This document shows positions 6,589 to 33,393 of a stretch of DNA of 64,000 nucleotides, one piece after another. This DNA comes from a virus (lineage: Duplodnaviria > Caudoviricetes). The DNA is taken from the IMG/VR virus record IMGVR_UViG_3300037312_001491, positions 24,096 through 88,095 of that record. One strand, 5' to 3'. The notes beneath the pieces are model-generated. The model searched no databases. It worked only from the letters and a program-made list of their open reading frames with translations, and had not been told where the DNA came from. Every line of letters begins with the position of its first letter. Within the stretch, counting starts at the first letter, position 1. The translations under genes and the position numbers were made by a program.

Positions 6589-7059
6589 ATGACCAAGACC
6601 CAGACCACGCGCGTCGCTGACGCGTCCCCCGCCCCGAAGGGCGGCGTGACCATCTTCTCTGCGAAGGACGCGGCCGCGGCCGCGCGTCCGTTCATGCGGC
6701 TCGACGAGCAGGAGACTCTCGTCGTGCTGCACCTCGACGTGCACAACAAGGTGATCGGGGATCCGCGCATCGCGGCCATCGGCACCATGACGAGCGTCGA
6801 GTGTCACCCACGCGACGTGTTCCGTGCCGCCATCGCGACCAACGCGGCCGCTGTCGTCGTGCTCCACAACCACCCGGTCGGCGACCCGACGCCGAGCGAC
6901 GCGGACATCGGCGTCACCCAGCGGCTCCTCGCCGCGGGCATCGCGCTCGGTATTCCGGTCCTCGACCATGTAGTCGTGACGGCCGACAACCACGTGTCGA
7001 TCCGCGAGCAGGGCGGTGGCGGTGTGGCCTACGAGCGCGTGCCGGAGGTGACGCTGTGA
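6589..7059 (+). CDS. radC: RadC-family JAB/MPN domain protein
   Basis: E..VVLHLD..NKVI, HPRDVF, LHNHPVGDPTPSDAD, LDHVVV signature. Confidence 0.9.
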   Translation: MTKTQTTRVADASPAPKGGVTIFSAKDAAAAARPFMRLDEQETLVVLHLDVHNKVIGDPRIAAIGTMTSVECHPRDVFRAAIATNAAAVVVLHNHPVGDPTPSDADIGVTQRLLAAGIALGIPVLDHVVVTADNHVSIREQGGGGVAYERVPEVTL

Positions 7060-9221
7060 AGCCCAACCAGGAAGTTCAGACCGTCGCCACGAGCGCGACA
7101 GCGTCGGCGTCGTTCGGCATCTCGCGCGCGGACGAGGCCCACATCATGGGCATCCTGCGCAGCACCCTCTACTCCGACAAGATCCTCGCGGTCCTGCGCG
7201 AGTACGGCGCGAACGCGTGGGACGCCCACCGCTCCGTCGGCCGCGGCGATGTCCCCATCGAGGTGACGTTGCCGACGTACGACGCGCCCGTCCTGCGCAT
7301 CCGCGACCGCGGCCCCGGCCTGTCGCGCAACGAGGTGTTCACCGTCTACACCCAGTACGGCGCGAGTAGCAAGCGCGACGACGACAACGCGGTCGGCATG
7401 CTCGGTATCGGCTCCAAGTCGGGCTTCTCGTACGCGAGCAGCTTCACGATCACGAGCTGGCACGCCGGCACCAAAGCGATCTACGTCGCGGCGCTCGACC
7501 CGAGCAACCGCGGCCTCATCAACCTCATCCACGAGCAGTGCCTGTGCTGCGAACGCCCCGTCGGCACGAAGAAGGACGAGGCCGACGAGACGGTCTACTG
7601 CGAGTGCACCGCGCGGCTCGCGCCCGAGACCGGCATCGAGATCCAGATCGTCGTGAAGCCGGCCGACGTCGACAAGTTCGAGGAGCGCGCCGAGCGGCTG
7701 TACGTCCACTTCGAGCCGCGTCCGACCATCAACATCCAGCTCCCTCCGCCCCCCGAGGGCGGGCTCACGAACGAGCATGGAACCATCCGTCCAGGTGGCC
7801 ACGGTGACTGGGTTGCGGTGATGGGCTGCGTGCCGTACCGCATCCGCCTGGGCGAGCTGGACCTGTGCGCCGAGCACCAGTGCCTGCACAACCTGTCCGG
7901 CATCATCCGGTTCGGCATCGGCGACGTGCAGATCGCCGCCTCGCGCGAGGACCTCGACTACACCGACGCGACGCGCGCCGCCATCACGGCGAAGTTCACG
8001 GAGCTGGTCGACGCGTTCGTCACGCAGTCGGTCGCCGAGCTGGAGGCGATGAGCCTGTGGGACCGGCGCCTCCGCGCGCAGGTGCTCAGCAACCTTGGTA
8101 TCACCCTGCCGGCCGAGTACGGCGAAATCGCCAAGGGCTGGGTGAAGTTGTTCGAGCCGAGCGACGACGGCGTGCCGTTCCGCATGTGGCACGTCAGCGA
8201 GCAGACCAGCCAGATCCAGGTCGAACCGGACACGCGCATCTACATCGACGACACCGGCAAGCTCCTCAAGGGCTACGCCCGCTCGATGGAGCGGCACTAC
8301 TACGTGGTGCGCGCCAAGACGCGCGGCATGTCGTACGACGACCTCAAGGCCGTCGTCGACGAGCACATCAACGCGTGCCTCGTCACCGGCATCCCCATCC
8401 ATCGGCTCTCCGAGCTGCACTGGGACTCGACCGCCAGCTCGCGTGGCGGCCGCTCGTGGGGTGCCGACAAGAGCAAGCACAAGGCGTCGATGTTCGTCCT
8501 CGACCCCGAGGCGCAGTTCAAGCACCCGTTCTCCAACGCGTGGTCGACGGTGACGCGTGTCCCCGAGGACACCGACGTGTTCGTCATCCTGGAGAACTTC
8601 AAACCCAACGGGGTCGACTCGTTCTTCCTGGAGTACCGCGACGACCGCGTGCTCGCCGAGGCGTTCGGCGTCGAGATGCCGCAGGTCTACGGGTACAAGT
8701 CGACGACGAAGAAGACCGTCCGCCCGTCTGACTGCAAGGGGCTCACGTACGACGCGTGGCGCAAGCAGTTCATCAAGGACCTCGGCACGCCCGAGCGCCT
8801 CGCCGAGATCTCCGAGATGTGGTGGGGGCACGTGCTCCGCTACACGGCCGACAGGTACGACCGCAAGTTTCTGCGCGAGCAGCTCGGCCGCGACCACGCC
8901 GTCGTCCGCCTCGTCTCTCGGTGCGCACACGCCGACAGCATGAAGAACCGGGACGCGCTGCTCGCGCTCGCGACTCGGCTTGGCATCGCGAAGGACACGT
9001 CGGCCGCGCACGCGGCACTCGAAGAGATCCTCAACCGCTACCCGCTGCTCCGGTGCAGCGACTACGGCGTCCGGTCGCTGTGGTTGAACTACACCCGGAA
9101 CCACCGCAACGAGTGGTGCAAGTACGTACGCCTCGTTGACGAAAGCCTAAATCGTACCCAGACTGTCGACACCAAGAAAGGAACCGCCACCGATGCAGCC
9201 GATTCCGTACAGCCTGTCTAA
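7056..9221 (+). CDS. rIIA: rIIA-like protein (GHKL ATPase N-terminus)
   Basis: LYSDKILAVLREYGANAWDAH, IRDRGPGLS, GMLGIGSKSGFSY motifs; followed by an rIIB-like gene; GTG start 7056. Confidence 0.85.
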   Translation: MKPNQEVQTVATSATASASFGISRADEAHIMGILRSTLYSDKILAVLREYGANAWDAHRSVGRGDVPIEVTLPTYDAPVLRIRDRGPGLSRNEVFTVYTQYGASSKRDDDNAVGMLGIGSKSGFSYASSFTITSWHAGTKAIYVAALDPSNRGLINLIHEQCLCCERPVGTKKDEADETVYCECTARLAPETGIEIQIVVKPADVDKFEERAERLYVHFEPRPTINIQLPPPPEGGLTNEHGTIRPGGHGDWVAVMGCVPYRIRLGELDLCAEHQCLHNLSGIIRFGIGDVQIAASREDLDYTDATRAAITAKFTELVDAFVTQSVAELEAMSLWDRRLRAQVLSNLGITLPAEYGEIAKGWVKLFEPSDDGVPFRMWHVSEQTSQIQVEPDTRIYIDDTGKLLKGYARSMERHYYVVRAKTRGMSYDDLKAVVDEHINACLVTGIPIHRLSELHWDSTASSRGGRSWGADKSKHKASMFVLDPEAQFKHPFSNAWSTVTRVPEDTDVFVILENFKPNGVDSFFLEYRDDRVLAEAFGVEMPQVYGYKSTTKKTVRPSDCKGLTYDAWRKQFIKDLGTPERLAEISEMWWGHVLRYTADRYDRKFLREQLGRDHAVVRLVSRCAHADSMKNRDALLALATRLGIAKDTSAAHAALEEILNRYPLLRCSDYGVRSLWLNYTRNHRNEWCKYVRLVDESLNRTQTVDTKKGTATDAADSVQPV

Positions 9222-10491
9222 CGACGTCCTGACCGTCACGGTCGAGGGCTCACCCAAGTTCGTCCGCAAGGGTGCCTCCGAGTTCGAGGCCCTGCGCGCC
9301 GCGCTCATCGCCGAGGACTGGGACACCGCGCACTCCTTGCTCAAGCCGGGAGGGGGCGTCGCGCACTACCTCGCGGCCCACAACACCGTCGCCGGTATCG
9401 CGCAGTTCCAGCTGCGCGACGGCCAGCTCTACTTCAACGACGAGCGGGTCCACCCCAACGTCGCTTCGCGCATCGACCGCATGGCGGCCTCTGGCGAGGA
9501 CCCGACGCCGGTGATCCGCTTCTACGAGCGTCTCCAGCAGAACCCGAGCAAGCGGTCCGTCGACCAGCTGTTCGACTTCCTCCAGCACCTCGGCCTGCCG
9601 TTCGAGGCGGACGGCACGTTCCTCGCGTACAAGGGCGTCAACGACGACCTGTCCGACAAGTACACCGGCCGCATCTTCAACACGCCGGGTGCGGTCATCA
9701 AGATCAACCGCAACCTCGTGTCGGACGACCCGCGCACGCCCTGCCACGAGGGACTCCACGTCGGCGCCCACGCGTACGCGAGCACGTTCGCCTCGACCAC
9801 CATCGCGGTGCGCGTCGACCCCAAGAACGTCGTCTGCGTGCCGTACGACTCTAGCAGCCAGAAGATGCGCGTCTGCGAGTACGAGGTCATCGGCCTCCAC
9901 TCGGGTGAGCTGATGCCGAACAACACGATCCCGGCCGCGGACGTGCCGGCGAAGTCCACCGCAGCGAACCTCGCGCCGTGCGCGAATTGCGGTATCCAGA
10001 CGCACGCGGTGGAGAACTTCTGCCACGGCTGCAAGCAGGTCGTGTGCAACGACTGCGACCAGGACCACGACCGCGCGATGGGCCCGCACGAGCTGAGCGA
10101 CCACCTGACCCTCGACTCGCCGGCGGCCGACAGCCGCAAGGGCGAGATCGACCCGGAGTACGAGAACGTCGCGGAGACGGTCGACGCCGTCACCGTCGCG
10201 AACGAGCCGGCGGTCGAGGCGTTCACCGGCGAGCAGCTCGACCAGGCCGTCACCGAGCACGCGCACGAGGCCGAACAGGCCAAGAAGTTTCGTCAGTTCA
10301 AGAAGTTGACGACGCGCCAGCTCCTGGAGCAGACGCTGACCGACCTCCGCGAGTACGCCCTCAAGCTCAAGATCGTCGGCTCGGGGCACATCAAGGGCGG
10401 CAAGACGGCCCTGGTGCCCCACATCGTCAAGGCACGCAGCCTGGCGAACCGCAAGCGCCTCAAGGTGCGCGGCAAGAAGGCCCGGAAGTAG
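9193..10491 (+). CDS. rIIB: rIIB-like protein with C-terminal extension
   Basis: NPSKRSVDQLFDFL, FLAYKGV, DDP..PCHEGLHVGA..YA, VDPKNVVCVP.D...KMRVCEYEV. Confidence 0.85.
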   Translation: MQPIPYSLSNDVLTVTVEGSPKFVRKGASEFEALRAALIAEDWDTAHSLLKPGGGVAHYLAAHNTVAGIAQFQLRDGQLYFNDERVHPNVASRIDRMAASGEDPTPVIRFYERLQQNPSKRSVDQLFDFLQHLGLPFEADGTFLAYKGVNDDLSDKYTGRIFNTPGAVIKINRNLVSDDPRTPCHEGLHVGAHAYASTFASTTIAVRVDPKNVVCVPYDSSSQKMRVCEYEVIGLHSGELMPNNTIPAADVPAKSTAANLAPCANCGIQTHAVENFCHGCKQVVCNDCDQDHDRAMGPHELSDHLTLDSPAADSRKGEIDPEYENVAETVDAVTVANEPAVEAFTGEQLDQAVTEHAHEAEQAKKFRQFKKLTTRQLLEQTLTDLREYALKLKIVGSGHIKGGKTALVPHIVKARSLANRKRLKVRGKKARK

Positions 10492-11439: not shown

Positions 11440-11469
11440 GAGGGACCCGTAGGCTGGCACAGTGGGTGC

Positions 11470-14214
11470 ATGGCCGACGAGAAGTCCGGGCGCACGAAGC
11501 GAGGCACGTTTGCACCTGGCACCTCCGGCAACCCCAGCGGCAGGGCGAAGCCCCGAACCGACGCCGCGCCGGTTACCAGGCTGGACGGCTGGCAGAACTT
11601 CTTCTCCGGCCATGGTGTCTACGGCCGCGACAAGCGCCAGGGGACGAGCTTCAAGGCCGCCACCCTGACGTTCGACCAGCTCGCCGAGCTGTGGCGCGGC
11701 GACGACCTCGCGGCACGCGCCGTCGAGACGCTGCCGAAAGAGTCTCTCCGCGAGGGTTACGATCTGTCGATCCCCGAGGCGGCGCTGGGTGGCGAGGACG
11801 AGGCCGAGCGCATCGCCGAGATCGTCGACGCCCTGTCGACACTGGGGGCGGACGAGACGATCCGTACCGGCCTCTGCTACGAGCGTGGCCTAGGTGGTGG
11901 CGCCGTCCTCATCGGCGCGAACGACGGCCAGGACGACCTGACCAAGCCGCTGCGCCTCGAATCCATCCGTTCGCTCGACTGGCTGACCCCGCTCGAACCG
12001 CGCGAGATCATGCCGGTGTACGGCTACGCCGACCCGCGCGCCCCGAAGTACGGCCAGCCCGAGATCTACCGCATCACGAGCCGCACCATCCTGCCACCGC
12101 AGGATGGCAAGTACGGCAACCAGGTGATGGACATCCACGAGTCGCGGCTCCTGGTGTTCCCCGGCATCCGCGTCAGCCGCTACCAGTACATGGCCTCCCA
12201 GGGCGGTTGGGGTGACTCGGTGCTCATCCGCATGTGGCGCGTGCTCCGCGACTTCAACCTCGCGTGGGGCTCCGCCGGCGCGCTCGTCACCGAGTTCGCC
12301 TCGGCGACGTACAAGATGAAGGACCTGTGGACGGCGCTGTCGACGAAGGGCGGCGCGCAGGCGTTCGCCGAACGCCTCCAGGCGATGGACCTGGCACGGT
12401 CGACCATCAACGCGACTGTCATCGACGGCGACGACGACTTCAAGCGCGAGCAGACGCCGATCTCCGGCCTGCCCGACCTCATGGACAAGTTCTCGACGCG
12501 CCTCGCGGCGGCCGCGGACATGCCGCTCACGCTCCTGTTCGGCACGAGCCCGGCGGGCCTCAACGCCACCGGCGAGTCTGACATTCGCTTCTTCTACGAC
12601 CGCGTCGCCGCGTTCCAGCGCGACAAGGTGCTGCCGCAGCTCAAGACGCTGATCCGGATTCTGTTCCGCACACTCGGCTCAAAGGTGGAGCCCGAGAAGT
12701 GGGACGTCGAGTTCCGTCCACTGTGGCAGGAGAGCGCCAAGGACAAGGCCGCCGCGATGCTCACGCAGGCGCAGGCCGACCACATCTGGGTCACCGACGG
12801 CATGCTGTCGGCCGAGGAGGTGGCGGACGCACACTGGGGCACCGGCAAGTGGGTCCCCGACCTCCGCGTCGACTTCGAGGCGCGCGAGCGCCAGGAGGCT
12901 GCGGCCGCCGCGCCGGTCACGCAAGCTGACTTCGCGGCGATGGGTCGCGGCCCCAACGGCCAGCCGCTCCAGCCAATGCCGGGCCAGCGCCAACTCCAGC
13001 CGGGCCCCGCGCAGTTCGGTCGCCCGCAGCCGCAGCCTGGCTTCGGACAGCCGGTGCAGCGCCAGCTCCAGCCCGGCCCGGCGATGCCAGGTCAGAAGCC
13101 GGTCCCTGGCCAGCAGTCACCCGGTCAGGCGCCAGGCGCGGCCGCCGCTCAGGGTGCCGCCCCCGGCGCAGCTCCGGGCGCGAAGGCGTCGAAGCTCGGC
13201 GCCAGCGGCTACCGCTACGCACCGGACGTCACCCAGCGTGGCCAGGGGGCCGACGACGACATCGACCGCAAGCCGCGCTCGATGGTGCTGTCGAACGACG
13301 CCGACGACCGTCCGCAGCTCAGCGTGGTGCGCGAGGACGTGATCGAGCATGCGTCCGACGGATGGCACGTCTACTCCGAGACCGAGCCGCGCAAGCATCT
13401 CGGCGGCCCGTACCAGACGAAGGAAGGCGCGATTGAACGACTGCGCCAGGTCGAGGGCCACGCCCGTGACGACAGCTTCAACCCGGACCAGCCACGCGCC
13501 GAGAATGGCGAGTGGGGCGAGGGCGGCGCCGGTGGCGCGCACCCGAGCGCACCGACGTCCGGCGAGCACGCCGCAGCGCAGGGCACCTCGTTCGAGCAGG
13601 CCGTCCACGCGGTCTCAGCCGGCGAGAAGCACGGCATGACCGCCGAGCACTTCAAGGCGCTCGTCGAGAGGAAGAAGGCGGAGTCCGACGCGCACAAGAA
13701 CGCGGTCCAGGCGTTCGCCGCCAAGCTCACGCCGATCGAGACGCAGGTCTCCAATGGCTACGGCGTGTTCGGAGAGGTCGTCAACGGTGCACTCCGCGCC
13801 GGTCGCCCGCCCAGCTCGGCCGACGAGAAGGCCGCGATCGGTGCGCTCGATAGTGCCATCAGGAAGTCGAAGGCGCCGGCCGACATGATCGTGTACCGCG
13901 GCATCCACAGTGACCGGGACCCGATGGCCAAGCTCAAGCCCGGTGTCGTCATCCGCGACAAGGGTTACGTGTCGACGACAGGTTCCCGAGACATTGCGGC
14001 CGAGTTCGCGCACCGGGAACACACCGGCAAGCTCGATCCGTCGTCCACGAGCGTCATCGTGAGGATCAAGGTTCCCAAGGGCCACCCAGCCGCGCCGATT
14101 CCGTCGACGTACCGGTTCGAGCACGAGTACCTCCTGCCTCGCGGCAGCAAGTTCAAGATCACCTCGGTCGCGAAAGAGGGCGGGGACACCGTCGTCGAAG
14201 CGGAGGCCCTGTGA
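11470..14214 (+). CDS. portal protein (DUF1073-type) fused to C-terminal ADP-ribosyltransferase
   Basis: aa ~30-470 portal-like (LWRGDDLAARAVETLP, IHESRLL, WGDSVL, GTSPAGLNATGESDIRFFYD, EFRPLWQ); Q/P linker; ART motifs VYRG (13894), STT (13972), EHE (14119). Confidence 0.85.
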   Translation: MADEKSGRTKRGTFAPGTSGNPSGRAKPRTDAAPVTRLDGWQNFFSGHGVYGRDKRQGTSFKAATLTFDQLAELWRGDDLAARAVETLPKESLREGYDLSIPEAALGGEDEAERIAEIVDALSTLGADETIRTGLCYERGLGGGAVLIGANDGQDDLTKPLRLESIRSLDWLTPLEPREIMPVYGYADPRAPKYGQPEIYRITSRTILPPQDGKYGNQVMDIHESRLLVFPGIRVSRYQYMASQGGWGDSVLIRMWRVLRDFNLAWGSAGALVTEFASATYKMKDLWTALSTKGGAQAFAERLQAMDLARSTINATVIDGDDDFKREQTPISGLPDLMDKFSTRLAAAADMPLTLLFGTSPAGLNATGESDIRFFYDRVAAFQRDKVLPQLKTLIRILFRTLGSKVEPEKWDVEFRPLWQESAKDKAAAMLTQAQADHIWVTDGMLSAEEVADAHWGTGKWVPDLRVDFEARERQEAAAAAPVTQADFAAMGRGPNGQPLQPMPGQRQLQPGPAQFGRPQPQPGFGQPVQRQLQPGPAMPGQKPVPGQQSPGQAPGAAAAQGAAPGAAPGAKASKLGASGYRYAPDVTQRGQGADDDIDRKPRSMVLSNDADDRPQLSVVREDVIEHASDGWHVYSETEPRKHLGGPYQTKEGAIERLRQVEGHARDDSFNPDQPRAENGEWGEGGAGGAHPSAPTSGEHAAAQGTSFEQAVHAVSAGEKHGMTAEHFKALVERKKAESDAHKNAVQAFAAKLTPIETQVSNGYGVFGEVVNGALRAGRPPSSADEKAAIGALDSAIRKSKAPADMIVYRGIHSDRDPMAKLKPGVVIRDKGYVSTTGSRDIAAEFAHREHTGKLDPSSTSVIVRIKVPKGHPAAPIPSTYRFEHEYLLPRGSKFKITSVAKEGGDTVVEAEAL

Positions 14215-16205
14215 GCAATAAGCGTTTCACCTGGACCGACGGCGACTTCGAGGTCGTCGAGTCGGGCGACCGCACCGACGACTTCAACCCCGACGAGCCT
14301 CGCGCGGCGGATGGGAAATGGGGCGAGGGCGGCGCCGGCGCCGCACAGAAGACTCCGGCCGCCGGCAAGGCCGGTCCGAAGGGTGAGGCTAAGGAGGCCG
14401 CGGAGTCCAAGGACAAGCCGAAGGCCGAAGACAAGCCGGCCGCGGAGGTGAAGGCGACCACCGCGCACACCGGCGCGTCGTTCGAGGACTGGCACAAGGT
14501 CAACCCGAACGGCAACGGTGAGGTGTTCTCGGACGCGCGCAAGGCGCTCGCGACCGAGACCGTCGGCCAGAACGCGTGGTTCAACTTCTCGAAGGCGAAC
14601 GAGGGCAAGCCGGTCAGCCAGCGCAGCTTCGCCGATCAGAAGGCGTTCCTGCTCGACCCCAAGCTGTACCAGCCGCTCATCGACCGTGCGACGAAGCACG
14701 ACGCCGCGGACGACGAGGACACGGACCTCTACTTCACGTGCCCGTGCCACCGCCGAGCGGCGGCCGCCCGCGCTGACTACGATGAGAGCGAGCCGCGCGA
14801 CGAGAACGGCAAGTGGAGTGGTGGCGGTGGCGGCAGCGCGGCCGCCCCCCACGCACACGGGGGCGAGCACGGCGCACCGCACGGCGGCGCCAAGGAGCTG
14901 GCTGAGAAGGCGAACGCCGGCGGCGGCTTCACCTACGACCCGCACCACGGCAAGTACCCGACGGAAGGCTACGCGGTCTCGATCCACCCGGGCCACGAAG
15001 AGGTCATCCGCTCGAAGGAGCTTTCGCCGGAGGCCGTGAAGGGTTACCTTGACCGGCACGGAGACTACATCCAGAAGCACCCCGGTGCTCACGTCGGCGG
15101 TTGGTATGACGCCGAGGCGGGCAAATGGTACCTGGACGTCAGCCACATCACGCACGACCCACACGAGGCGGAATCCCTCGCGAAGCAGCACAACCAGGAA
15201 GCGTACTACGACCTCGGCAAGCACGAGACCGTCTACGTCAAGTCTGGAAAGGAACGACGACTCGATGAGCGACAAGCCCAAGACACCGCCCGCCGGCGCA
15301 CGAAAGATCTTCTTCGACCCCGCCAAGATGTCCCCCGAGGAGATCGCGGAGGCGATGAAGAAGCACGAGGAGCAGGAGCACGCGCGCCGGGGAATCCCCC
15401 GGAAGCCCGAGTAGACTACTCCCCCGACGAGCCGCGCGCGGCCGATGGGAAGTGGGGCGATGGCGGTGGCGGTGGCCGCGCGGCCGCGTCGTCGCACGTC
15501 GAGCACGCCAAGACCTCGTCGGTCCGCTCGCGCGAGCACGCCGGGAAGGCCGAGACGGAGGCCGACCGCGCGAAGGCGTCGAAGGGCAAGGCGCAGGCCA
15601 AGCACGTCGAGGCGGCGCACGACCACGCCCGCGAGGCCGAGCGTCACGCCCGCGAGGCGAGCGCCGCGGCTGACCGCGCGAAGGAGGCCGGCGGCGAGGA
15701 CTCGCCGTCCGCCAAGGAGGCGTCCAAGCACGCCGTCGAGGCGACCTCCAACGCGAAGGCAGCCCGCACGCAGGCGTCCGGTGCACAGAAGGCCGCGTCG
15801 TCTGGCGGGCAGGCCGGTGCCGCGCGCGCCGCCGCCGACAAGGCGACGAAGGTGGCGGAGAATCTCCACGCCGCCGCGGTTGAGCACCCGACGAAGGCCG
15901 GGCCGACCGCCGAGGAGGCGGACAAACACGCCAAGGCCGCACGCGACCACGCCCGCGCAGCCGCCGGCGCAAAGACGCCCGAGGACGCCGCACAGCACAC
16001 GGCGAAAGCACACGAGCACGCCGCCGCGGCGGAAGAGGCGGCCGCCAAGCTGACCCGCGAGGCCGCGAAGCACGCGCAGCATGAAGGCCACGGCAAGCAC
16101 GCCGAACACGGCGGCCATGGCAAGCACGAGCGCGCCGAGCACAACCACAAGCACGTCGCCGAGAGTTGGCAGGCCCTGCTCAAGATGCTCATGGGTGCCG
16201 GATGA
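14211..16205 (+). CDS. multi-module head-associated protein with three tag repeats
   Basis: 664 aa; three R-x-D..PR...GKW repeats separate distinct modules; Ala/His-rich C-terminus. Confidence 0.7.
   Translation: MSNKRFTWTDGDFEVVESGDRTDDFNPDEPRAADGKWGEGGAGAAQKTPAAGKAGPKGEAKEAAESKDKPKAEDKPAAEVKATTAHTGASFEDWHKVNPNGNGEVFSDARKALATETVGQNAWFNFSKANEGKPVSQRSFADQKAFLLDPKLYQPLIDRATKHDAADDEDTDLYFTCPCHRRAAAARADYDESEPRDENGKWSGGGGGSAAAPHAHGGEHGAPHGGAKELAEKANAGGGFTYDPHHGKYPTEGYAVSIHPGHEEVIRSKELSPEAVKGYLDRHGDYIQKHPGAHVGGWYDAEAGKWYLDVSHITHDPHEAESLAKQHNQEAYYDLGKHETVYVKSGKERRLDERQAQDTARRRTKDLLRPRQDVPRGDRGGDEEARGAGARAPGNPPEARVDYSPDEPRAADGKWGDGGGGGRAAASSHVEHAKTSSVRSREHAGKAETEADRAKASKGKAQAKHVEAAHDHAREAERHAREASAAADRAKEAGGEDSPSAKEASKHAVEATSNAKAARTQASGAQKAASSGGQAGAARAAADKATKVAENLHAAAVEHPTKAGPTAEEADKHAKAARDHARAAAGAKTPEDAAQHTAKAHEHAAAAEEAAAKLTREAAKHAQHEGHGKHAEHGGHGKHERAEHNHKHVAESWQALLKMLMGAG
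15265..15414 (+). CDS. nested out-of-frame small ORF (49 aa)
   Basis: MSDKPKTPPAGARKIFFDPAKMSPEEIAEAM...; G/C-ending codons in this frame while the host frame has many A/T-ending codons; AGGAA upstream. Confidence 0.55.
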   Translation: MSDKPKTPPAGARKIFFDPAKMSPEEIAEAMKKHEEQEHARRGIPRKPE

Positions 16206-17569
16206 GCTGCTGTCGCCTCGACCGCGGGGCGCTGCCGAAGCCGAAGCGGCCGCGTACCCTGCCCATCCAGGTCCCGCCGACAGCGATCGAGGCCCAGTAC
16301 GCCAAGGCGCTCGTCCGGTACGTCATCGGCGCGATGCGCTGGGCGTACGCGCCGCTGCTGCGCGAGGCCCCCAAGCTCGTCAAGGCGCGCGCGGCCGCGC
16401 GGCACGACTCCGCCGACGAGTGCACTACGACGATGTTCGCCGGGCTACCGATCGTAATCGAGAACCCGGCCGGCTCGTTCCGGTACTGGGTCGACACGAC
16501 CGGGCGCGCCGGCACGACGGTGATGCGGTACCCGTACGGCTACGTCCGCGGCGTGCGTGGCGCCGACGGTGACGAGGTCGACGTGTTTATCGGTCCAGAC
16601 GAAGCGGCGCAGTGGGTGTACATCGTGCACCAGCGGTTCGCGCCGAAGTTCGTCGACTTCGACGAGGACAAGGTGATGCTCGGGTTCCCGAGCGCCGACG
16701 CCGCGCGCGCGGCGTACCTCGCGCACTACGACGACCCCCGCTACTTCGGGGGGATGACCCAGGTCCAGCGCGAGGCGTTCGAGCGCGCGGTCGCGGCCGC
16801 TCGCGGCGGCAAGATCACCCACGTCGACTCGCTGACGGCCGTCGCTCGCTACGACTCCCCGGAGTCGCGTCGGGTGCAGAAGCTCATCCGCGAGGCCGCA
16901 CGCCGGCTCCGGCTCAAGCTCAACAAGCGCGAGATCGCGCGGCTGGCGAAAAAGTTCGCCGAGCAGACGAGCACGTACCAGCGCGTGCAGCTCCACCGCC
17001 AGGTCCACGCGGCCCTGGGCATCGCGGCGCCGCTCGCCGCCGAGTACACGCAGAGTCGCATCGCCGACTTCGTTCGCGAGAACGTCGCGCTCATCTCGCG
17101 GATTCCACAGGAGCACCACGGCGAAATCGAGACGATGGTCCACCGTGCGGTCACCAGCGGCCAGCTCACCGACGATCTCGCCGACGACCTGGAGGACGAG
17201 TTCGCGCTCTCCGAACGCCACGCGCGTTTCATCGCTCGTGATCAGATCGGCAAGCTCCAGGCCGACCTCAACCACGCGCGCCAGCGTGACCTCGGCGTCA
17301 AAAAGTTTGTGTGGCGGACGATGCGCGACGAGCGCGTCCGCGGCACGCCCGGCGGCCTGTACCCCAACGCGCAGCCCAGCCACTTCGACCTCGATGGCCA
17401 GGAGTTCTCCTACGACGACCCTCCGCAGCCACCTGGTGCCCAGGGGCCGCTTCTACCCGGGGATGACTACAACTGCCGCTGCTACGCCGAACCAGTTTTT
17501 GATGAGCTGGTGGAGGACCTGCGCGTGGCCGAAGTCGATCCGGACGAAGCGTCGATGGAAGCGGAATAG
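16202..17569 (+). CDS. MuF/SPP1 gp7-like minor head protein with inserted inorganic-pyrophosphatase-like domain
   Basis: ARFIARDQIGKL, KKFVWRTMRDERVR, H..LDG..F, PGDDYNCRC (MuF); insert IENPAGS.R..YPYGY..GADGDEVDVFIG..DEDKVMLGF at ~16400-16855. Confidence 0.85.
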   Translation: MSCCRLDRGALPKPKRPRTLPIQVPPTAIEAQYAKALVRYVIGAMRWAYAPLLREAPKLVKARAAARHDSADECTTTMFAGLPIVIENPAGSFRYWVDTTGRAGTTVMRYPYGYVRGVRGADGDEVDVFIGPDEAAQWVYIVHQRFAPKFVDFDEDKVMLGFPSADAARAAYLAHYDDPRYFGGMTQVQREAFERAVAAARGGKITHVDSLTAVARYDSPESRRVQKLIREAARRLRLKLNKREIARLAKKFAEQTSTYQRVQLHRQVHAALGIAAPLAAEYTQSRIADFVRENVALISRIPQEHHGEIETMVHRAVTSGQLTDDLADDLEDEFALSERHARFIARDQIGKLQADLNHARQRDLGVKKFVWRTMRDERVRGTPGGLYPNAQPSHFDLDGQEFSYDDPPQPPGAQGPLLPGDDYNCRCYAEPVFDELVEDLRVAEVDPDEASMEAE

Positions 17570-18392: not shown

Positions 18393-20120
18393 ATGGCGAC
18401 CCATCGCCGGCTCGACCTCGGAGAACTGCGGCCCATGACCCGCCGCGGGGACGGGACCGTCCGCGTCCAGGCGCACCTCACGCGCTGTGGCGTGTTTCCA
18501 TACCTCCAGCCCGACGGCACCATTCGCCGCGAGCTGCGCCCCCGCGACGAGGTGATGGATCCGGAGTCCCTGGCGTCGTTCGCCGGCGTGCCTGTCACCA
18601 ACGACCACCCGCCCGAGATGGTCGACTCGAAGAACGCCCGCAAGTACGCGGTCGGCTCGCTCCAGGGGACGCCGATTCCCGACGACGACCACGTCCGCGG
18701 CGATCTCTCCGTCTACGACGGCGAGACCATCGGCCAGATGGACAGCGGCTCGCGGCGCCAGGTTAGCCTGGGCTACACCTGTGACCTCGAAGAGACGCCA
18801 GGCGTCGATCCGGTCTACGGCCCCTACGATGCCATCCAGCGGAACATCCGCGGCAACCACGTCGCCCTGGTGACGACGGCCCGCGCCGGTGGCACGGCAC
18901 GCGTCCGCCTCGACGCTGCGGAGCAGCTTGATGGCACGGTTCTTGCGCTCTGCACGAACTGTGCCAAGATGCATTTCATGGCGACCAACGCCGCGCACGC
19001 CGACGCAAGCGAGACCGACAAGCCGCAGGGTGGCAAGCCCGAGGCTGGTGACCCGGACACGGGTGACGAGGCTTCGCGCAACGCCGCCGGCGCGAACGAC
19101 GCGCAGGCCGGCGATAAGGCCAAGAAGCCGCCGGCGACCGCCGACGACACCGACACGAAGGTCGAGCGCGACAGCGCCGACGACGACGAGGAAGACGACA
19201 CCCCCACCGATGGCGGCGATGACGACGACACCTCGGACGACGACGACGATGAAGGCGACGACTCGGACGACGACACCGACGCCGGTGACGACGACGAGGA
19301 AGACCGCGACGATGACGGCGAGCAGCTGTCGGACGAGGACCGCCACAAGATGGCGACCAGCTCGTTCGCGGTGCCAGACCGAGAAGGTCTGCCCATCCAC
19401 GACCCCGATCACACGCGGGCCGCGATGGCGCGCTTCAACCAGTACAAGTTCAAGTCGCCCGAAGAGAAGCACGCAGCGTTCAACCGGATCACCCGGCGCG
19501 CGTCGCACTTCGGCATCGACAGCAAGGGTTTCGAGGAGGCGCATCGCGACCGCCTCGACCGCGAGGACGACGAGATGAAGAAGATCGCCCAGCTCCAGAC
19601 TAAGCTCGACGCGGCCGAGAAGAAGCTCGCAACGGCCGAAGGCCAGGTCGCCAGCCTCACCAAGGACCTCGAAGCCGCGAAGAAGACGACCGAGTCGGCC
19701 CGCAAGGACGCCGCCGATCGCTTCGACGCGATGGTCGCCGAGCGCGTCGCGCTCCTGACCGAGGCCGCCGCGACTGGCGCGAAGGTCGACGCGAAGATGT
19801 CGTCGATCGAGATCAAGCGCACCGTCGTCAAGCACGTCGACGGCGAGGACATCCCGGCCGAGAAGCCGGAGCCGTACGTCGACGCGTACTACGAGGGCGC
19901 TCTCAAGCGCGCTCGCAGGGACGCCGAGGACACGAAGAAGGGCGCAGACGCCCTCGCCGCCGCGCGCGCCACCGCCGCGGGTGCGACGCAGCCGGTCCCG
20001 CAGCCGGTCCCGCACAACGACGCCGACGACACCGATGAGCAGGCGGCCTACGCCCGCGCGAACGCCCGCAACGCCGAGGCGTGGACCCACTCGTGGGGCC
20101 GCACTCAGGAGAACAAGTAA
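18393..20120 (+). CDS. DUF2213 prohead protease/scaffold with acidic linker and DUF6582-like insert
   Basis: LTRCGVFPY, RPRDEV..PESLASF.G.PVTNDHP, QVSLGYTCDL, IQRNIRGNHVALV..ARAG; insert FAVP.R..LPIHD..H.RAAMARFNQ; coiled-coil scaffold tail. Confidence 0.85.
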   Translation: MATHRRLDLGELRPMTRRGDGTVRVQAHLTRCGVFPYLQPDGTIRRELRPRDEVMDPESLASFAGVPVTNDHPPEMVDSKNARKYAVGSLQGTPIPDDDHVRGDLSVYDGETIGQMDSGSRRQVSLGYTCDLEETPGVDPVYGPYDAIQRNIRGNHVALVTTARAGGTARVRLDAAEQLDGTVLALCTNCAKMHFMATNAAHADASETDKPQGGKPEAGDPDTGDEASRNAAGANDAQAGDKAKKPPATADDTDTKVERDSADDDEEDDTPTDGGDDDDTSDDDDDEGDDSDDDTDAGDDDEEDRDDDGEQLSDEDRHKMATSSFAVPDREGLPIHDPDHTRAAMARFNQYKFKSPEEKHAAFNRITRRASHFGIDSKGFEEAHRDRLDREDDEMKKIAQLQTKLDAAEKKLATAEGQVASLTKDLEAAKKTTESARKDAADRFDAMVAERVALLTEAAATGAKVDAKMSSIEIKRTVVKHVDGEDIPAEKPEPYVDAYYEGALKRARRDAEDTKKGADALAAARATAAGATQPVPQPVPHNDADDTDEQAAYARANARNAEAWTHSWGRTQENK

Positions 20121-20675: not shown

Positions 20676-21074
20676 ATGAGCGTCACACGCCGTGAGAACA
20701 AGACCCTCCAGGAGAGGGATCGGGTCGAGGCGACCATCGTCGCCGCGGTCGCCGCCACCTCCAGCATCGCGCTGGGCACGATGGACCGCGACTACGTCGT
20801 CGACTCGTTCGAGGTCGAAGCCCCCGGCGGCTACACCGCCGATGACGCCAACCGGTACACCATCACGCTCCAAGCGGGCGCGACGGTGCTGGCGACGCTC
20901 GACCTCACCACCGCAACCGGCAGCCTCGTGGACCTCGTGTTCAAGGCCGCCACGCTCGCCGCGACGCACTACGGCTCGGCCGGGGACACCCTCAAGGCCG
21001 TCCTCACCAAGAACGGCACGGCCGCCAACATCCCCGCCGGTACTCGCCTCGTGGCGAAGTGCCACCTGCTCTAA
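20676..21074 (+). CDS. virion-associated hypothetical protein (132 aa)
   Basis: RBS GAGGAG; position in the head module. Confidence 0.6.
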   Translation: MSVTRRENKTLQERDRVEATIVAAVAATSSIALGTMDRDYVVDSFEVEAPGGYTADDANRYTITLQAGATVLATLDLTTATGSLVDLVFKAATLAATHYGSAGDTLKAVLTKNGTAANIPAGTRLVAKCHLL

Positions 21075-21088
21075 GAGAGGCCACGATC

Positions 21089-22165
21089 ATGTCCTTCAAC
21101 GTCACCGCCCGTTTCTCCCAGGAGCGTCTCGACAAGATGCTCGCCCAGTCGCGTGGGTATGACCCCCGCGCGCCGCGTGCTGCCCGCATCGACAGCCTGA
21201 GTGACAACCAGCGCCACCTGCTCGAAGGCATCTTCCACCGTGACGCCTCGGAGAGCATCTGGTTCGCGCGCCAGCTGGAGTACATCCGCCCCGGCCTGCT
21301 CGACGTCCTCTACCCGGCGCTCAACGGCCGGTCGCTCGTGCCGATCGAGTCGTCGATGGGTCCGGGTGCGTCGATGTGGACCTACCGCTCGTTCGACAAG
21401 GTCGGTAGCGCCGCCCTCGTCGACGACTACGCGATGGACCCGCCGCGCGCCGACGTGAAGGGCCGCGAGGACACGCAGGTCATCAAGCCGTACGGCGTCA
21501 TGTACGGCTACAACTTCCAGGAGCTTCGCGCCGGCATGATGGCGCAGCTGCCCCTGGACACGCGCAAGGCGATGGCCGCGCGCTACGCCATGGAGAGGAA
21601 GATCGACGAGATCATCTTCTACGGCGACACGGCCGGCGGCCTCAAGGGCCTCCTGAACCAGGCGAACACGACCACGTTCAACGTGGCGAACGGCGCCAAG
21701 GGCACCACGTTCTGGAAGGACAAGAGCCCGGACGAGATCGTGCGTGACATGCACGACTTCGTGAACAACGTCGTGTCGACGAGCCTGGGCGTGTACCAGC
21801 CGACGACCCTGGTGCTGCCGCTCCGCGCGCATCAGATCGCGTCGACGACCCGCATGGGCGACGGCTCGAACGAGACGGTCCTCTCGTTCTTCCAGAAGAC
21901 GAACCCGTACATCCAGGAGGTCATCGCCTCCTACCGCCTCAACTACTCGCAGCGCGCGAACTGGGGTGGCTCGTCGGGTCGCATGATGTGCTACGAGAAG
22001 TCGCCGGACCGGCTGGTCATGATCCTGCCGGTCGAGTTCGAGCAGCTCCCCCCGCAGCAGGAAGGCTACGAGTACAAGACGCTCTGCCACATGCGCACGG
22101 GCGGCGTCGTCTCGCTGCACCCGCAGGCGATCTCGTACGGCGACGGCATCACCAACAGCGACTAA
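21089..22165 (+). CDS. major capsid protein (DUF2184-like HK97 fold)
   Basis: FARQLEYI, YGYNFQELRA, ERKIDEIIFYGD...KGLLN, PVEFEQLPPQ, RTGGV...P..I.Y.DGI. Confidence 0.85.
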   Translation: MSFNVTARFSQERLDKMLAQSRGYDPRAPRAARIDSLSDNQRHLLEGIFHRDASESIWFARQLEYIRPGLLDVLYPALNGRSLVPIESSMGPGASMWTYRSFDKVGSAALVDDYAMDPPRADVKGREDTQVIKPYGVMYGYNFQELRAGMMAQLPLDTRKAMAARYAMERKIDEIIFYGDTAGGLKGLLNQANTTTFNVANGAKGTTFWKDKSPDEIVRDMHDFVNNVVSTSLGVYQPTTLVLPLRAHQIASTTRMGDGSNETVLSFFQKTNPYIQEVIASYRLNYSQRANWGGSSGRMMCYEKSPDRLVMILPVEFEQLPPQQEGYEYKTLCHMRTGGVVSLHPQAISYGDGITNSD

Positions 22166-24653: not shown

Positions 24654-26003
24654 ATGGCCACGCTGACCGACTACGTCCAGATCACGATTACCCGGGACAC
24701 GGTGGGCATCACCGCGCCTGGCTATGGCACCCCGCTGGTCCTGGGGTACTCGGCCACCTGGGCTGATCGCATTCGCTTCTACGAGGACCTGCCGTCGATG
24801 GTAACGGACGGGTTCGCCACCGACTCGCCCGAGTACCTGGCGGTCCAGGCGATGCTCTCGCAGAACCCCAGGCCAGTCCAGGTCGCGGTCGGCAAGGGCC
24901 TCCTCAAGCCGACGCAGGTCTACGTGGTCGGCGTGAACTCGGTCGCGAACACGACGAACTACGTCGTGACCGTGGCAGGCCACGGCGTGACCACCACGAC
25001 GCTGACGTACACGTCGGACAGCTCGGCCACCAACGACGAGATCGTCGCCGGTCTGGTGACGGCGCTCAACGGTGTCGTTGGCAAGAACTACACGGCGGTG
25101 GCAACCGGTTCGGCAGGCTCACAGGTCGTGACCATCACCGCCTCCTCGGCAGGTGAGTGGTTCTCGATCGCCATCGACGACCCGGCGTTCCTGTCGAACA
25201 AGCAGACCCAGGCGGACCCCGGCATCGCCACCGACCTCGCGGCCATCCTCAACGCGAACCCAGGCTTCTACGGCGTCTACACGACGTTCAACAGCCAGGC
25301 GATCGTCGCGGCGACGGCGGCGTGGGTCGAAGCGAACACGCGCATCTACGTACCGGACGTCCCCGAGACGCTCGCGGTCACGACGACCGGAGGCTCCGGC
25401 GGTTCGGCGGACACGCTCGACGCGCTCCACACGTCGAACTACGCGCGCACGCTCGGCGCCTACCACCCCAGCCCGGTGAACATGCTCGGCGCGGCGTGGC
25501 TCGGCAAGATGCTTCCGCTCGACCCCGGCTCGGCGACGTGGAAGTTCAAGACGCTCGGCGGCGTTGCGTTCACCAAGTACACGACGACTCAGCGCAACAA
25601 CCTGCTGAGCCGCCAGGCGAATGGCTACGAGAACGTCGCCGGTCTGTCGGTGACCTTCGAGGGCACCTCGGCTGACGGTGAGTACCTCGACGCCATCGTC
25701 GGCGACGACTGGGTCACGACGGACATGCAGGTCCGCATCCTGACCGTGATGGCGGCCGCGAACAAGACGGAGTTCGAGGACACCGGCATCGCGCGCGTCG
25801 AGGCGGCTGTCCGCGCGACGCTCAAGGAAGCTGTGCGCCGCAAGATCTACGCGGCGAGCCCGCGCCCGCAGGTCACCGTCCCACTGGCCGCGAACGTCTC
25901 GACGGCTGACAAGTCCACCCGGACCCTGCCCGACATCAAGTGGACCGCGACCCGTAGCGGCGCGATCCACAAGACGAAGGTCCAGGGGACCGTGTCCCTC
26001 TAG
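24654..26003 (+). CDS. tail sheath protein (DUF3383-like)
   Basis: DSPEYLA...SQNPRP, PGSATWKFKTL.GV, G.Y.D.I.G.DW; followed by the tube gene. Confidence 0.85.
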   Translation: MATLTDYVQITITRDTVGITAPGYGTPLVLGYSATWADRIRFYEDLPSMVTDGFATDSPEYLAVQAMLSQNPRPVQVAVGKGLLKPTQVYVVGVNSVANTTNYVVTVAGHGVTTTTLTYTSDSSATNDEIVAGLVTALNGVVGKNYTAVATGSAGSQVVTITASSAGEWFSIAIDDPAFLSNKQTQADPGIATDLAAILNANPGFYGVYTTFNSQAIVAATAAWVEANTRIYVPDVPETLAVTTTGGSGGSADTLDALHTSNYARTLGAYHPSPVNMLGAAWLGKMLPLDPGSATWKFKTLGGVAFTKYTTTQRNNLLSRQANGYENVAGLSVTFEGTSADGEYLDAIVGDDWVTTDMQVRILTVMAAANKTEFEDTGIARVEAAVRATLKEAVRRKIYAASPRPQVTVPLAANVSTADKSTRTLPDIKWTATRSGAIHKTKVQGTVSL

Positions 26004-32037: not shown

Positions 32038-33393
32038 GTGGCGACCACCTACGGGCTCACCGACCTCGGTCTCGTCATCAAGACGCTGACCATCATCCGC
32101 GCCGACCTCGAAGCGGCGATGCGCGCGGCCTTCGGCGCATCGCTCAAGCTCGGCGATACGACACTGCTTGGCCAGATCTGCGGCATCATGGCGGAGCGGT
32201 ACGCGGAGCTATGGGCACTCCTCGCGGCGGTCTATGCGTCGCAGGACCCGAACGCGGCGACCGGCCTGTCACTCGACAACGTCTCGGCGATCACCGGCAC
32301 GACCCGTCCACCGGCGTCGTACTCGACCGTCACACTGACCGGCACCGGCACCCCGAGCACGGTGGTCCCGGCGTCGACGCAGGTCGAGACGGCGAGCACG
32401 GCCATCAAGTTCACGACGACCGCGGACGAGACGCTGGTCGCTGTGTCGGCGTGGGCGGCCAACCACACGTACGTCATCGGCGACCGCGTGACGAACGGCG
32501 GCAACGTCTACCAGTGCACCATCGCCGGCGTCAGCGCCAGCTCGGGTGGGCCGAGCGGCACCGGCACGGCCATCGTCGACAACTTCGCAACATGGGCGTA
32601 CGTCGGTGCGGGCACCGCGGCTGCGGACATTGCCGCACGCGCCGTCGACACCGGTGACATCGCGGCGGCCGCCGGTGACCTCACGGTCATCGACACACCC
32701 GTCGCCGGCCTGTCGAACATCACGAACCTGCTCGATGCCGCGCGCGGCCGCGACGTCGCCACGGACGAGGAGCTGCGCCTGCTCCGCGAGGCCGAGCTGT
32801 CTGGTGATGGCGTCAGCACCGAGGACGCCATCGAGGCGGCCGTCCTCCAGATCGCCAACGTCGTCGCGTGCACGGTCTACGTCAACGACACCGACACGAC
32901 GAATGTGGACGGCATGCCGCCTCACTCCGTCGAGGTCGTCGTCCTCGGCGGCGCCGATCAGGACATCGCCAACACGCTGTTCGCCGAGGTCGCCGCCGGC
33001 ATCGCGACGCACTCGTCCAGCTCGAACTCGGCCACGGTCGTCGACAGTCAGGGCGTCTCGCACACCATCTACTTCACGCGGCCGGCGCAGATCCTCGTCT
33101 ACGTCGACCTGACACTGACCTACGACGCCGAGCTGTACCCGTCGGACGGCGACGCGGAGATCCAGGCCGCCATCACGGCGTTCGGCGCGAAGTTCCCGTC
33201 CGGCAAGAACGTGACGTCGTCCGGCGTCGGTGCACAGGCGTTCTCGGTGCCCGGTGTGCTCGACGTCACCCCGGTCTACATCGGCACGTCCCCGAGTCCG
33301 GGCTCCAGCGCGACCATCGCCGTGTCCACGCGGCAGCTCGCCGTGTTCGACACCAGCCGCATCAACATCCACTCCAGCGCGGCCACCCCATGA
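32038..33393 (+). CDS. baseplate J-like protein with CBM5/12-like insertion
   Basis: A.G..LD......G..R, GR..ETD.ELR.R-like, PPHSVEVVV.GG; insert AWAANHTYVIGDRVTNGGNVYQC. Confidence 0.85.
   Translation: MATTYGLTDLGLVIKTLTIIRADLEAAMRAAFGASLKLGDTTLLGQICGIMAERYAELWALLAAVYASQDPNAATGLSLDNVSAITGTTRPPASYSTVTLTGTGTPSTVVPASTQVETASTAIKFTTTADETLVAVSAWAANHTYVIGDRVTNGGNVYQCTIAGVSASSGGPSGTGTAIVDNFATWAYVGAGTAAADIAARAVDTGDIAAAAGDLTVIDTPVAGLSNITNLLDAARGRDVATDEELRLLREAELSGDGVSTEDAIEAAVLQIANVVACTVYVNDTDTTNVDGMPPHSVEVVVLGGADQDIANTLFAEVAAGIATHSSSSNSATVVDSQGVSHTIYFTRPAQILVYVDLTLTYDAELYPSDGDAEIQAAITAFGAKFPSGKNVTSSGVGAQAFSVPGVLDVTPVYIGTSPSPGSSATIAVSTRQLAVFDTSRINIHSSAATP

Follow-up and report, generated by a model that had tools for sequence, protein, structure and literature searches.

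The Alt protein of phage T4 is an R-S-E ADP-ribosyltransferase (ART); it is carried inside the head, co-injected with the DNA and modifies arginines. The exotoxins C3, VIP2, iota Ia and CDTa are secreted, with signal peptides or binding components, and act on eukaryotic actin or Rho. The same ART family, with the same fold and in the same head-module context as at the locus reported here, also occurs fused to MuF, as in the Enterococcus EFV toxin and in actinophages (e.g. Microbacterium phage Percival); MuF toxins are reported mainly from temperate phages, and for the MuF protein of SPP1, gp7, 1–2 copies per capsid are reported (PMC5576092). Iyer et al. described packaged effectors in which an enzyme is likewise carried by a head-assembly protein within the terminase-portal module; in the portions of this work available to us (PMC5512222, PMC9503650) head packaging is proposed for the portal- and MuF-fused effectors, and encapsidation and injection are predictions there too, this literature being computational throughout. 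Lastly, the gp19 portals of the Pseudomonas PB1-like myoviruses E217 and Pa193 bear, as here, an enzyme-like C-terminal extension. The barrel at their C-terminus extends into the head, while no density is seen for residues 529–765; the extension's domain or fate is not discussed in the parts of the two structure papers at hand (PMC10329688, PMC11456595).

Our window, the whole stretch of 64,000 nucleotides that was analysed, truly encodes a portal with a toxin-like ADP-ribosyltransferase end (Table 1). Enzyme-portal fusions are already known from the comparison of genomes, and this locus is a clear further example, not a new category. The original prediction held that no characterised portal-ART fusion was known: a literature search judged by title and abstract indeed returned nothing relevant on an experimentally characterised one, but the novelty had been overstated, as viral proteins of UniProt/BFVD annotated as portal hold the same ART fold.

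Table 1. Features of the portal-ART locus and of the head genes downstream, in window positions
Feature	Position	Strand	Remark
Whole portal-ART ORF	11470..14214	+	914 aa, 98.6 kDa
Portal module, aa 1-493	11470..12948	+	PF06381, phrog_146, Pam3 portal 8hds match
Pro/Gln/Gly/Ala-rich low-complexity tether and short conserved acidic stretch, aa 494-616	12949..13317	+	composition, alignment
Small variable insert, aa 617-671	13318..13482	+	missing in P0002, P0004
Junction tag, heads ART module	13483..13527	+	single copy in portal-ART ORF
Predicted ART domain, aa 715-914	13612..14211	+	four N-terminal helices and beta core
Predicted catalytic R810	13897-13899	+	
Predicted catalytic S835	13972-13974	+	
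Predicted catalytic E884	14119-14121	+	
Predicted catalytic E886	14125-14127	+	
Modular cargo-like ORF, 664 aa	14211..16205	+	three tags, Ala/His/Lys-rich helical tail
Tags in the 664-aa ORF	14289-14333, 14793-14831, 15423-15470	+	
InPase and MuF head protein	16166..17569	+	Pfam, PHROGs; start provisional
DUF2213 head-maturation protease, acidic region, DUF6582, scaffold-like coiled-coil	18393..20120	+	
Major head protein	21059..22165	+	phrog_264, E 7.8e-86

A portal reading frame with an ART end

The single unbroken frame that had been predicted is borne out by the ORF listing and by the translation, which starts at an ATG and has no internal stop; its TGA stop and the GTG that opens the following ORF share bases (GTGA), and its GC3 of 0.89 is even with the neighbouring genes. 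A 19.4-kb Logan contig from the probable source run covers the ORF end to end. The support of the junctions, whose examination had been advised, comes from Logan contigs, not from raw reads: those of three other soil/rhizosphere runs tile the ORF over every junction with 0 differences (run X3 at 11564-13389 and 13428-14500, X5 at 12833-13449, X4 at 13408-14151). Two apparent gene variants were rejected—a 3-base insertion at 12883-12884, seen on short high-depth contigs of other organisms with about 30 matched bases, and a "joint" of 12298-13628 in run X3, which amounts to 22 flanking letters on an unrelated 42.7-kb contig.

The N-terminal half matches the portal family PF06381 (Phage_portal_3) at aa 70-438 with 281 bits for a Pfam cut-off of 33.8 (E 1.4e-83), over positions 2-356 of the 357 of the profile, and the portal family phrog_146 at aa 33-455 (E 2.6e-104); the DUF1073-type portal announced for this half is thus found. 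The Pam3 portal (PDB 8hds) matches aa 38-453 (E 1.2e-24), and the module is also homologous to the solved portals 9jlf and 9l01, and to E217 gp19 (8fvh) and Pa193 gp19 (9b41), which belong to the same superfamily (E 2.6e-8 and 4.6e-8, aa ~296-453); these portals were solved in virions, as dodecamers. The crown/barrel helix region is part of the module, and a weak DUF5681-like motif lies near its N-terminus (aa 11-31). In the search for this portal family, the 88,095-bp genome gave one strong match.

Judged by profile, modelled fold and catalytic residues, the C-terminal domain is an ADP-ribosyltransferase of the R-S-ExE class, in agreement with the original prediction and by the approaches it had suggested. 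Pfam places PF03496 (ADPrib_exo_Tox) at aa 749-902 with 61.4 bits for a cut-off of 23.4 (E 9e-17); a genome-wide search with this family gave a single match, of 65.2 bits, and two ART families of PHROGs also match (phrog_3895, E 4.3e-9; phrog_802, E 2.1e-5). The AlphaFold (AF2) model of aa 715-914, built on a 32-sequence alignment, adopts the ART fold, with N-terminal helices and a split beta-sandwich core, at a pLDDT of 92.7 and a pTM of 0.86; a single-sequence run on aa 631-914 reached a pLDDT of 44 and was unusable. The top PDB structures retrieved by Foldseek are iota Ia, CDTa, Plx2A, C3bot, Vis and VIP2 (TM 0.65-0.71), with probability 1.00 and E 2.6e-13 to 1e-11 for 4h0v, 2wn4, 5urp, 2c89 and 1qs1, so that the C3/VIP2/iota-Ia/CDTa exotoxins are the nearest solved folds as well as the sequence family, sharing the R, S-T-S-like and E-x-E motifs. 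The motifs VYRG, STT and EHE fall where they had been placed, at aa 808-811, 835-837 and 884-886; R810, E884 and E886 are invariant among 32 homologues, S835 and T836 are kept in at least 90% of them, and the E-x-E aligns with that of CDTa.

In this ART family the E-x-E motif is the basis for inferring arginine specificity, and the domain would transfer ADP-ribose from NAD+ to arginine. Among the BFVD matches are the "ADP-ribosyltransferase domain and MuF-like fusion protein" of Percival and a head morphogenesis protein of Raoultella phage RP180; T4-like structures named "RNA polymerase ADP-ribosylase" appear there only at ranks 21, 33 and 49. Since the Alt-like match, that of phrog_802, is weak, RNA polymerase need not be the target.

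Tether, junction tag and exchangeable modules

The residues P, Q, G or A make up 77% of aa 493-575, in keeping with the Gln/Pro linker first described, and the tether (aa 494-616) has no Pfam family when searched to E 10. The small domain that was said to follow is real as an insert, being missing in two 80%-identical relatives, but belongs to no significant Pfam family: its best match, DUF2188 (E 0.099), is below threshold. In protein P0003 a larger ParB-like insert takes its place; a relationship of the small insert with the protease ORF was considered, and the comparison shows none.

The tag, of about 20 residues, follows the pattern D-aromatic-x-P-D-x-P-R-x3-G-x-W and then a Gly run; it stands at aa 672-682 of the portal-ART protein. 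A tag repeat had been announced within this ORF: the tag is there, but in one copy, the other three of the four being in the next ORF. At the DNA level the four copies are about 78% alike, not near-identical. Among the 120 best portal relatives, the tag is found in 33 of the 61 extended ones and in 0 of the short ones, and shuffled sequences gave none. The remaining 28 extended relatives do without it and show other junction motifs, so that the tag cannot be a universal release signal.

Portal homology stops sharply at aa ~493. Beyond this point the C-terminal domains of homologous portals vary, which is what a survey of DUF1073 homologues was expected to tell: portals 44-72% identical to ours end with an ART, RelA_SpoT, Zeta_toxin, a PI3_PI4_kinase-like domain (below cut-off) or InPase. 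P0006, for example, is 72% identical over aa 4-493, and past it only the tag matches. The compared sequences indicate that the cargo position is polymorphic, other modules occupying the same place on sister portals, and that modules bounded by tags move from portal tail to neighbouring gene or back. The portal-ART layout itself recurs in six proteins from other contigs, whose best local alignments show 57-92% identity (79-92% for P0002-4; for P0007-9, 57-67% over the portal half), and an unrelated portal family, PF04860, likewise bears this ART. Of the 150 best ART relatives, 11 are MuF fusions. When the ART region alone was used in a word-indexed search, 7 proteins came back, too few for a census.

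Neighbouring genes and lifestyle of the phage

The head module runs in the order portal, cargo ORF, MuF, protease, capsid and sheath. The second module of the 664-aa cargo-like ORF is found within the portal ORF of P0009 (37% identity, E 8e-33); its three modules gave nothing significant in Pfam with E up to 10. A frameshift fusion of the portal frame into this ORF was considered: the upstream frame is open, yet it encodes an Arg-rich off-frame sequence, so that such a fusion is unsupported. The following gene carries MuF, which is the customary bearer of effectors, joined to an InPase domain instead of an ART, which agrees with the view that the ART rides on the portal rather than on MuF. Further downstream, the DUF2213 protease is a candidate enzyme for the release of the cargo; a literature search on DUF2213, judged by title and abstract, found nothing relevant.

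At 88,095 bp the genome is rated 100% complete by CheckV. It contains rIIA/rIIB-like genes and no integrase or resolvase, and no prophage relatives were found among 185,579 species genomes. The phage, an uncultured one from soil, is probably a virulent 88-kb high-GC myovirus, and lacks the integrase expected of the temperate phages from which MuF toxins are mainly reported. Neither an ARH nor a Macro domain was found in its genome.

Proposed loading, release and action of the enzyme

The explanation that we favour, and hold with moderate confidence as a whole, is that the ORF is the functional and single portal gene of the phage and that its ART is a 12-copy cargo borne by the portal, which a protease sets free and which leaves the capsid to modify arginines of the host by ADP-ribosylation; of these steps, those of release and injection are inferred. 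An ART cassette of the C3/VIP2/iota-like type would have been joined to the inward-facing C-terminal tail of the portal through a flexible tether of about 120 residues and a conserved junction tag. As the portal dodecamer would nucleate procapsid assembly with its C-terminus pointing into the head, up to twelve ARTs might be enclosed per capsid without a separate targeting signal. An ART still on its tether would be unable to enter the cell unless it is cut off: the DUF2213 prohead protease would cut in the linker/tag region, and the freed enzyme of ~24-30 kDa would leave through portal and tail alongside the DNA. It would then draw on the NAD+ of the host and ADP-ribosylate arginines in its proteins at the onset of infection, like T4 Alt. 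Injected proteins precede phage gene expression, which makes them leading candidates for host take-over and for a first line of counter-defence.

In these respects the predicted cargo resembles T4 Alt, likewise an R-S-E ART and, according to the available part of PMC5512222, head-packaged, injected with DNA and arginine-modifying; Alt, however, is a stand-alone protein whose loading does not depend on the portal and which the gp21 protease processes, whereas here the enzyme is fused to the portal. In the MuF-ART fusions the carrier is MuF, and here it is the dodecameric portal. Unlike the related exotoxins, the enzyme is predicted to be an internal cargo of the phage head. A fusion to the portal is the simplest loading rule imaginable—one cargo per subunit, placed in the head by topology—and this idea has so far been built almost wholly on genome comparison.

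It is also possible, though we put it forward tentatively, that in this soil-phage lineage the tail of the portal and the gene behind it form one polymorphic cargo locus, where the tag would serve both as a recombination joint for exchanging cassettes and as the site of release by DUF2213, and the portal as a 12-copy loading dock for injected enzymes. The effector modules of this proposed locus, mutually unrelated and each with the tag at its head, would be ART, alarmone synthetase, Zeta kinase, InPase, ParB-like and unknown domains. Two of these kinds, InPase and ParB-like, fall within the repertoire of Iyer et al., and the tag-bounded modules and their exchange between portal tail and next gene set this phage apart from the descriptions in the parts of that work at hand.

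The ART might instead stay attached to the portal, uninjected, and act late in the producing cell or in the procapsid, where it would modify host defences directed against portal or terminase, modify phage head proteins, or simply fill head volume. We regard this as rather unlikely, in any of these variants. It agrees with the fact that no cleavage site is demonstrated, and with late expression the enzyme would already be active in the cytoplasm when assembly begins; moreover PMC9503650, in the part available, raises the possibility that ARTs of this kind act against immunity directed at the packaging apparatus. The invisible portal extension of E217 and Pa193 fits equally a domain that is tethered and disordered and one that has been cleaved off. 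On the other hand, the cargo of sister portals (RelA/SpoT, Zeta toxin, InPase) is that of MuF and polyvalent proteins thought to be delivered, the long flexible tether and the conserved tags resemble sites of processing or handling, and the gene of a head protease lies three genes downstream.

A polymorphic toxin of the MuF type, serving competition among bacteria or lysogens (or directed, in the manner of VIP2/iota, at eukaryotes) and not the take-over of the phage's own host, appears quite improbable. The MuF toxins do likewise join an N-terminal carrier, which is conserved, to C-terminal toxin domains that can be swapped (PMC5576092), and the nearest solved folds are those of actin- or Rho-targeting toxins. 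But the portal-ART protein has no MuF domain; the genome has no integrase or resolvase, when MuF toxins are reported almost only from temperate phages (PMC5576092), and a search of it for an ARH/Macro candidate for immunity found none; the next ORF looks like cargo rather than like a small immunity gene; and a component for binding or translocation is absent. Least probable is an artefact of assembly or gene calling (a chimera, a missed stop) or a decayed, inactive ART: the record is metagenome-assembled and contigs, not raw reads, were compared, but the identical overlapping contigs of three other samples, the six proteins of like architecture from other contigs, the uniform GC3 and the catalytic residues conserved across 32 homologues all argue against it.

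For the favoured reading, that of a cargo loaded with the portal and then released, this locus offers a clean test case, with a single ART that looks active, a tether that is well defined, a protease encoded nearby and sister phages carrying other cargo at the same joint. E217 and Pa193 bear on the same question: their cargo is InPase, not ART, and as far as tested they have no such tag. The InPase lies at aa 639-754 of 9b41_L, among the residues without density, and is homologous to the InPase of the soil phage (E 6.9e-18); these cultured phages of solved structure thus carry, at the same portal position, an enzyme left unremarked in the accessible parts of their structure papers, so that the question of release is answerable with existing phage stocks.

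Anatomy of the portal-ART reading frame

Portal-ART joins an N-terminal portal and a C-terminal ADP-ribosyltransferase (ART) in 914 codons, from an ATG start and with zero internal stops; its third-position GC (0.89) is like that of neighbouring genes. Phage_portal_3 (PF06381) matches aa 70-438 (Pfam, 281 bits; cut-off 33.8) and ADPrib_exo_Tox (PF03496) aa 749-902 (61.4 bits; cut-off 23.4), while PHROGs gives the portal family phrog_146 (E 2.6e-104) and two ART families besides. The uninterrupted fusion of the original prediction is thus found, with the motifs where it had placed them: VYRG at aa 808-811 (R810), STT at 835-837 and EHE at 884-886. Two lesser elements hold in part: the "small domain" is a real insert but has no significant family match, and the "tag repeat" exists as a motif but in a single copy here, the other three lying in the next ORF.

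Features of the window, in genome order
Feature	Position	Strand	Remark
rIIA-like (HATPase_c_3) and rIIB-like genes	6801-10491	+	upstream of head module
Sigma-54-like element	11455-11469		TGGCAC-N5-GTGC
Portal-ART	11470-14214	+	
Portal N-terminal motif	11500-11562		portal aa 11-31
Linker of portal-ART	aa 493-575		77% Pro/Gln/Gly/Ala (composition)
Insert between portal-ART domains			~55 residues; no significant Pfam family; missing in closest relatives
Tag copy in portal-ART	13483-13527	+	single copy, ~20 residues
664-aa ORF (downstream ORF)	14211-16205	+	start overlaps portal-ART stop (GTGA)
InPase+MuF	16166-17569	+	InPase N-terminal to MuF core
DUF2213 protease	18393-20120	+	scaffold-like tail
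Major head protein	21059-22165		
Sheath	24654-26003		then tape measure, baseplate hub
1408-aa ORF	32868-37094	+	tail/baseplate region; no PHROG match at E <= 0.001

The source record (88,095 bp) is complete by CheckV. In assembled Logan contigs, as distinct from raw reads, the junction is borne out: overlapping contigs from three other rhizosphere/soil runs tile 11564-14500 with zero differences, and the run that is probably the source has a single 19.4-kb contig spanning the whole stretch. The architecture is repeated in six proteins from other contigs, P0002-4 being 79-92% identical to portal-ART and P0007-9 57-67% (best local alignment, for the latter the portal half). Given these identical contigs and same-architecture proteins, an assembly artefact is very unlikely.

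All relatives keep a weak DUF5681-like N-terminal motif, R-x3-G-x-F-x-x-G-x-S-G-N-P, whose R-x3-G-x-F core is similar to the tag core. For Pa193, a Pseudomonas PB1-like phage, the first 93 portal residues are reported as undetected by LC-MS. The sigma-54-like (-24/-12) element adjoins the portal-ART ATG, near which no obvious Shine-Dalgarno sequence was found; similar elements were noted ahead of other late operons in the original prediction.

Sequence comparison relates the last 224 residues to the exotoxin ARTs CDTa, iota Ia, C3larvin and VIP2 (E 8.5e-6 to 1e-2), and the E-x-E lines up in these matches. An AlphaFold model of aa 715-914, made with an alignment of 32 ART homologues (pLDDT 92.7, pTM 0.86), retrieved from the PDB by Foldseek iota Ia, CDTa, Plx2A, a Listeria ART toxin, C3bot, Vis and VIP2 (E 2.6e-13 to ~1e-11, TM 0.65-0.71). 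Together with PF03496 this gives the domain the ART fold that had been proposed. Every sequence of the alignment keeps the catalytic Arg and the two Glu, at least 90% keep Ser-Thr, and all these residues are invariant across the seven portal-ARTs (query and six relatives). In the R-S-E clade, E-x-E is the arginine-specific configuration. With its catalytic residues and E-x-E conserved, the domain looks enzymatically active. A profile search found it to be the sole ART of the genome, where neither ADP-ribosylhydrolase nor macro domains were found.

Variable cargo and the tag

Among the best 120 portal relatives, 61 are extended (at least 650 aa). The proposed survey of their C-terminal domains (Pfam, precomputed or rescanned) reveals varied cargo: ART in seven proteins, query included, Zeta_toxin in five, RelA_SpoT and InPase in three each, and a PI3_PI4-kinase-like domain, below cut-off, in two. 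P0006, a portal relative 72% identical to portal-ART over aa 4-493, is unrelated beyond, save the tag; since identity ends there, the cargo joint lies directly behind the portal crown. Judged from these sequences, the portal C-terminal end is a polymorphic cargo position, and portal-ART no one-off.

Among the 150 best ART cluster representatives are many giant proteins bearing as many as nine ART copies, as well as ~11 MuF fusions and four portal fusions; two of the portal fusions (P0217, P0265) belong to another portal family, PF04860. The giants P0123-P0127 and P0135, among the closest ART relatives, have 2,200-4,300 aa and 5-9 ART repeats. In BFVD, this ART fold occurs in two viral UniProt entries with a portal annotation (A0A6J5S481, HK97-type portal, and A0A8S5N2S9), and MuF-ART proteins occur in cultured phages, e.g. 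Percival and RP180.

The tag consensus is D-aromatic-x-[P/E]-[D/E]-x-[P/H/E/A]-R-x3-G-x-[W/F], then a Gly run; no Pfam family covers it. Each copy, in portal-ART as in the downstream ORF, heads a different module. It stands after aa 450 in 33 of the 61 extended portals, in none of the short portals among the best 120 and in no shuffled sequence, and flanks the inserted modules of P0003 and P0007-9. It is not universal: another clade of extended portals has other junction motifs and only 10 of 149 ART relatives are tagged. Its candidate roles are those of cleavage site, handling signal and recombination joint. The part of the downstream ORF between tags 2 and 3 (aa 189-420) has a counterpart in P0009 (37% identity, E 8e-33), which there sits within the portal ORF, between portal and ART; this indicates that modules pass from portal tail to next gene or the other way.

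The downstream ORF comprises two globular modules without assigned family, the three tags and an Ala/His/Lys-rich helical tail; a similar tail terminates the portal protein itself in some other extended portals (by eye, unaligned). The untagged sister clade (P0014, P0016, P0018, P0020-22, P0026, P0030, P0033, P0036) repeats R-D-E-R-x-R-F-A-G and D-E-W-S-x-A-A-R-E-A at its junctions. Its modules include InPase and a ParB-like type (DGHHR), and a conserved acidic Gly/Glu tail closes the proteins.

Proposed packaging and release of the enzyme

Solved portals of the superfamily point their C-terminal barrel into the head, and gp19 of E217 and Pa193 (765 aa) is modelled up to residue 528, 529-765 being without density (PMC10329688, PMC11456595). 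This invisible part holds an InPase domain (residues 639-754 of Pa193 gp19, PDB 9b41_L) homologous to the MuF InPase of our phage (E 6.9e-18); the passages searched in the E217 and Pa193 papers make no mention of a domain there. As solved barrels project inwards, the 44-kDa extension would be enclosed by the capsid, with as many as twelve copies per head. Since 130-240 residues of tether are too few to span a myovirus neck and tail, the cargo would have to be cut free before delivery, the DUF2213 protease, three genes downstream, being the obvious candidate enzyme and the conserved junctions the obvious candidate sites; the freed ART would then be ejected and modify host arginines. We regard this full chain, from packaging to modification, as somewhat probable. 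That the enzyme stays tethered and acts in the producer cell or procapsid seems rather unlikely. A related alternative is put forward by Iyer et al. 2022 (PMC9503650), in which such ARTs would counter immunity against the packaging apparatus. The original prediction is confirmed in its observation and supported in part in its interpretation.

Known systems and genomic context

Jamet et al. 2017 (PMC5576092) defined the MuF polymorphic toxins, 14% of them ARTs, in temperate phages. Unlike these, portal-ART has neither a MuF domain nor a temperate context, and thus falls outside the definition; the carrier is indeed the portal, MuF being encoded separately. It matches the class of portal-fused effectors: Iyer et al. 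2017 (PMC5512222) describe portals fused to PBECR, 2H and InPase (e.g. BcepF1) and predict injection. The class is already known from computational descriptions, and our literature search turned up no experimental work on a portal-ART fusion, in line with the earlier claim. The value of portal-ART lies in its clean modular anatomy, and release is testable in existing PB1-like phages.

The phage is a myovirus, its genes running from rIIA/rIIB-like through portal-ART, 664-aa ORF, InPase+MuF, DUF2213 protease, head protein, sheath and tape measure to hub. It is probably virulent, since its genome showed neither integrase nor resolvase and a search of 185,579 bacterial and archaeal species genomes yielded no relatives. 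The closest portals from isolated phages are <37% identical to portal-ART. A ~1 kb gap with one small ORF, without assigned function, separates the rIIA/rIIB-like genes from the portal; we consider such genes beside a head module unusual in a high-GC soil phage. In the protease ORF, DUF2213 stands together with a stretch of ~90 residues (mostly Asp/Glu/Thr/Gly/Ala), DUF6582 and a coiled coil; the ORF is probably a protease-scaffold fusion.
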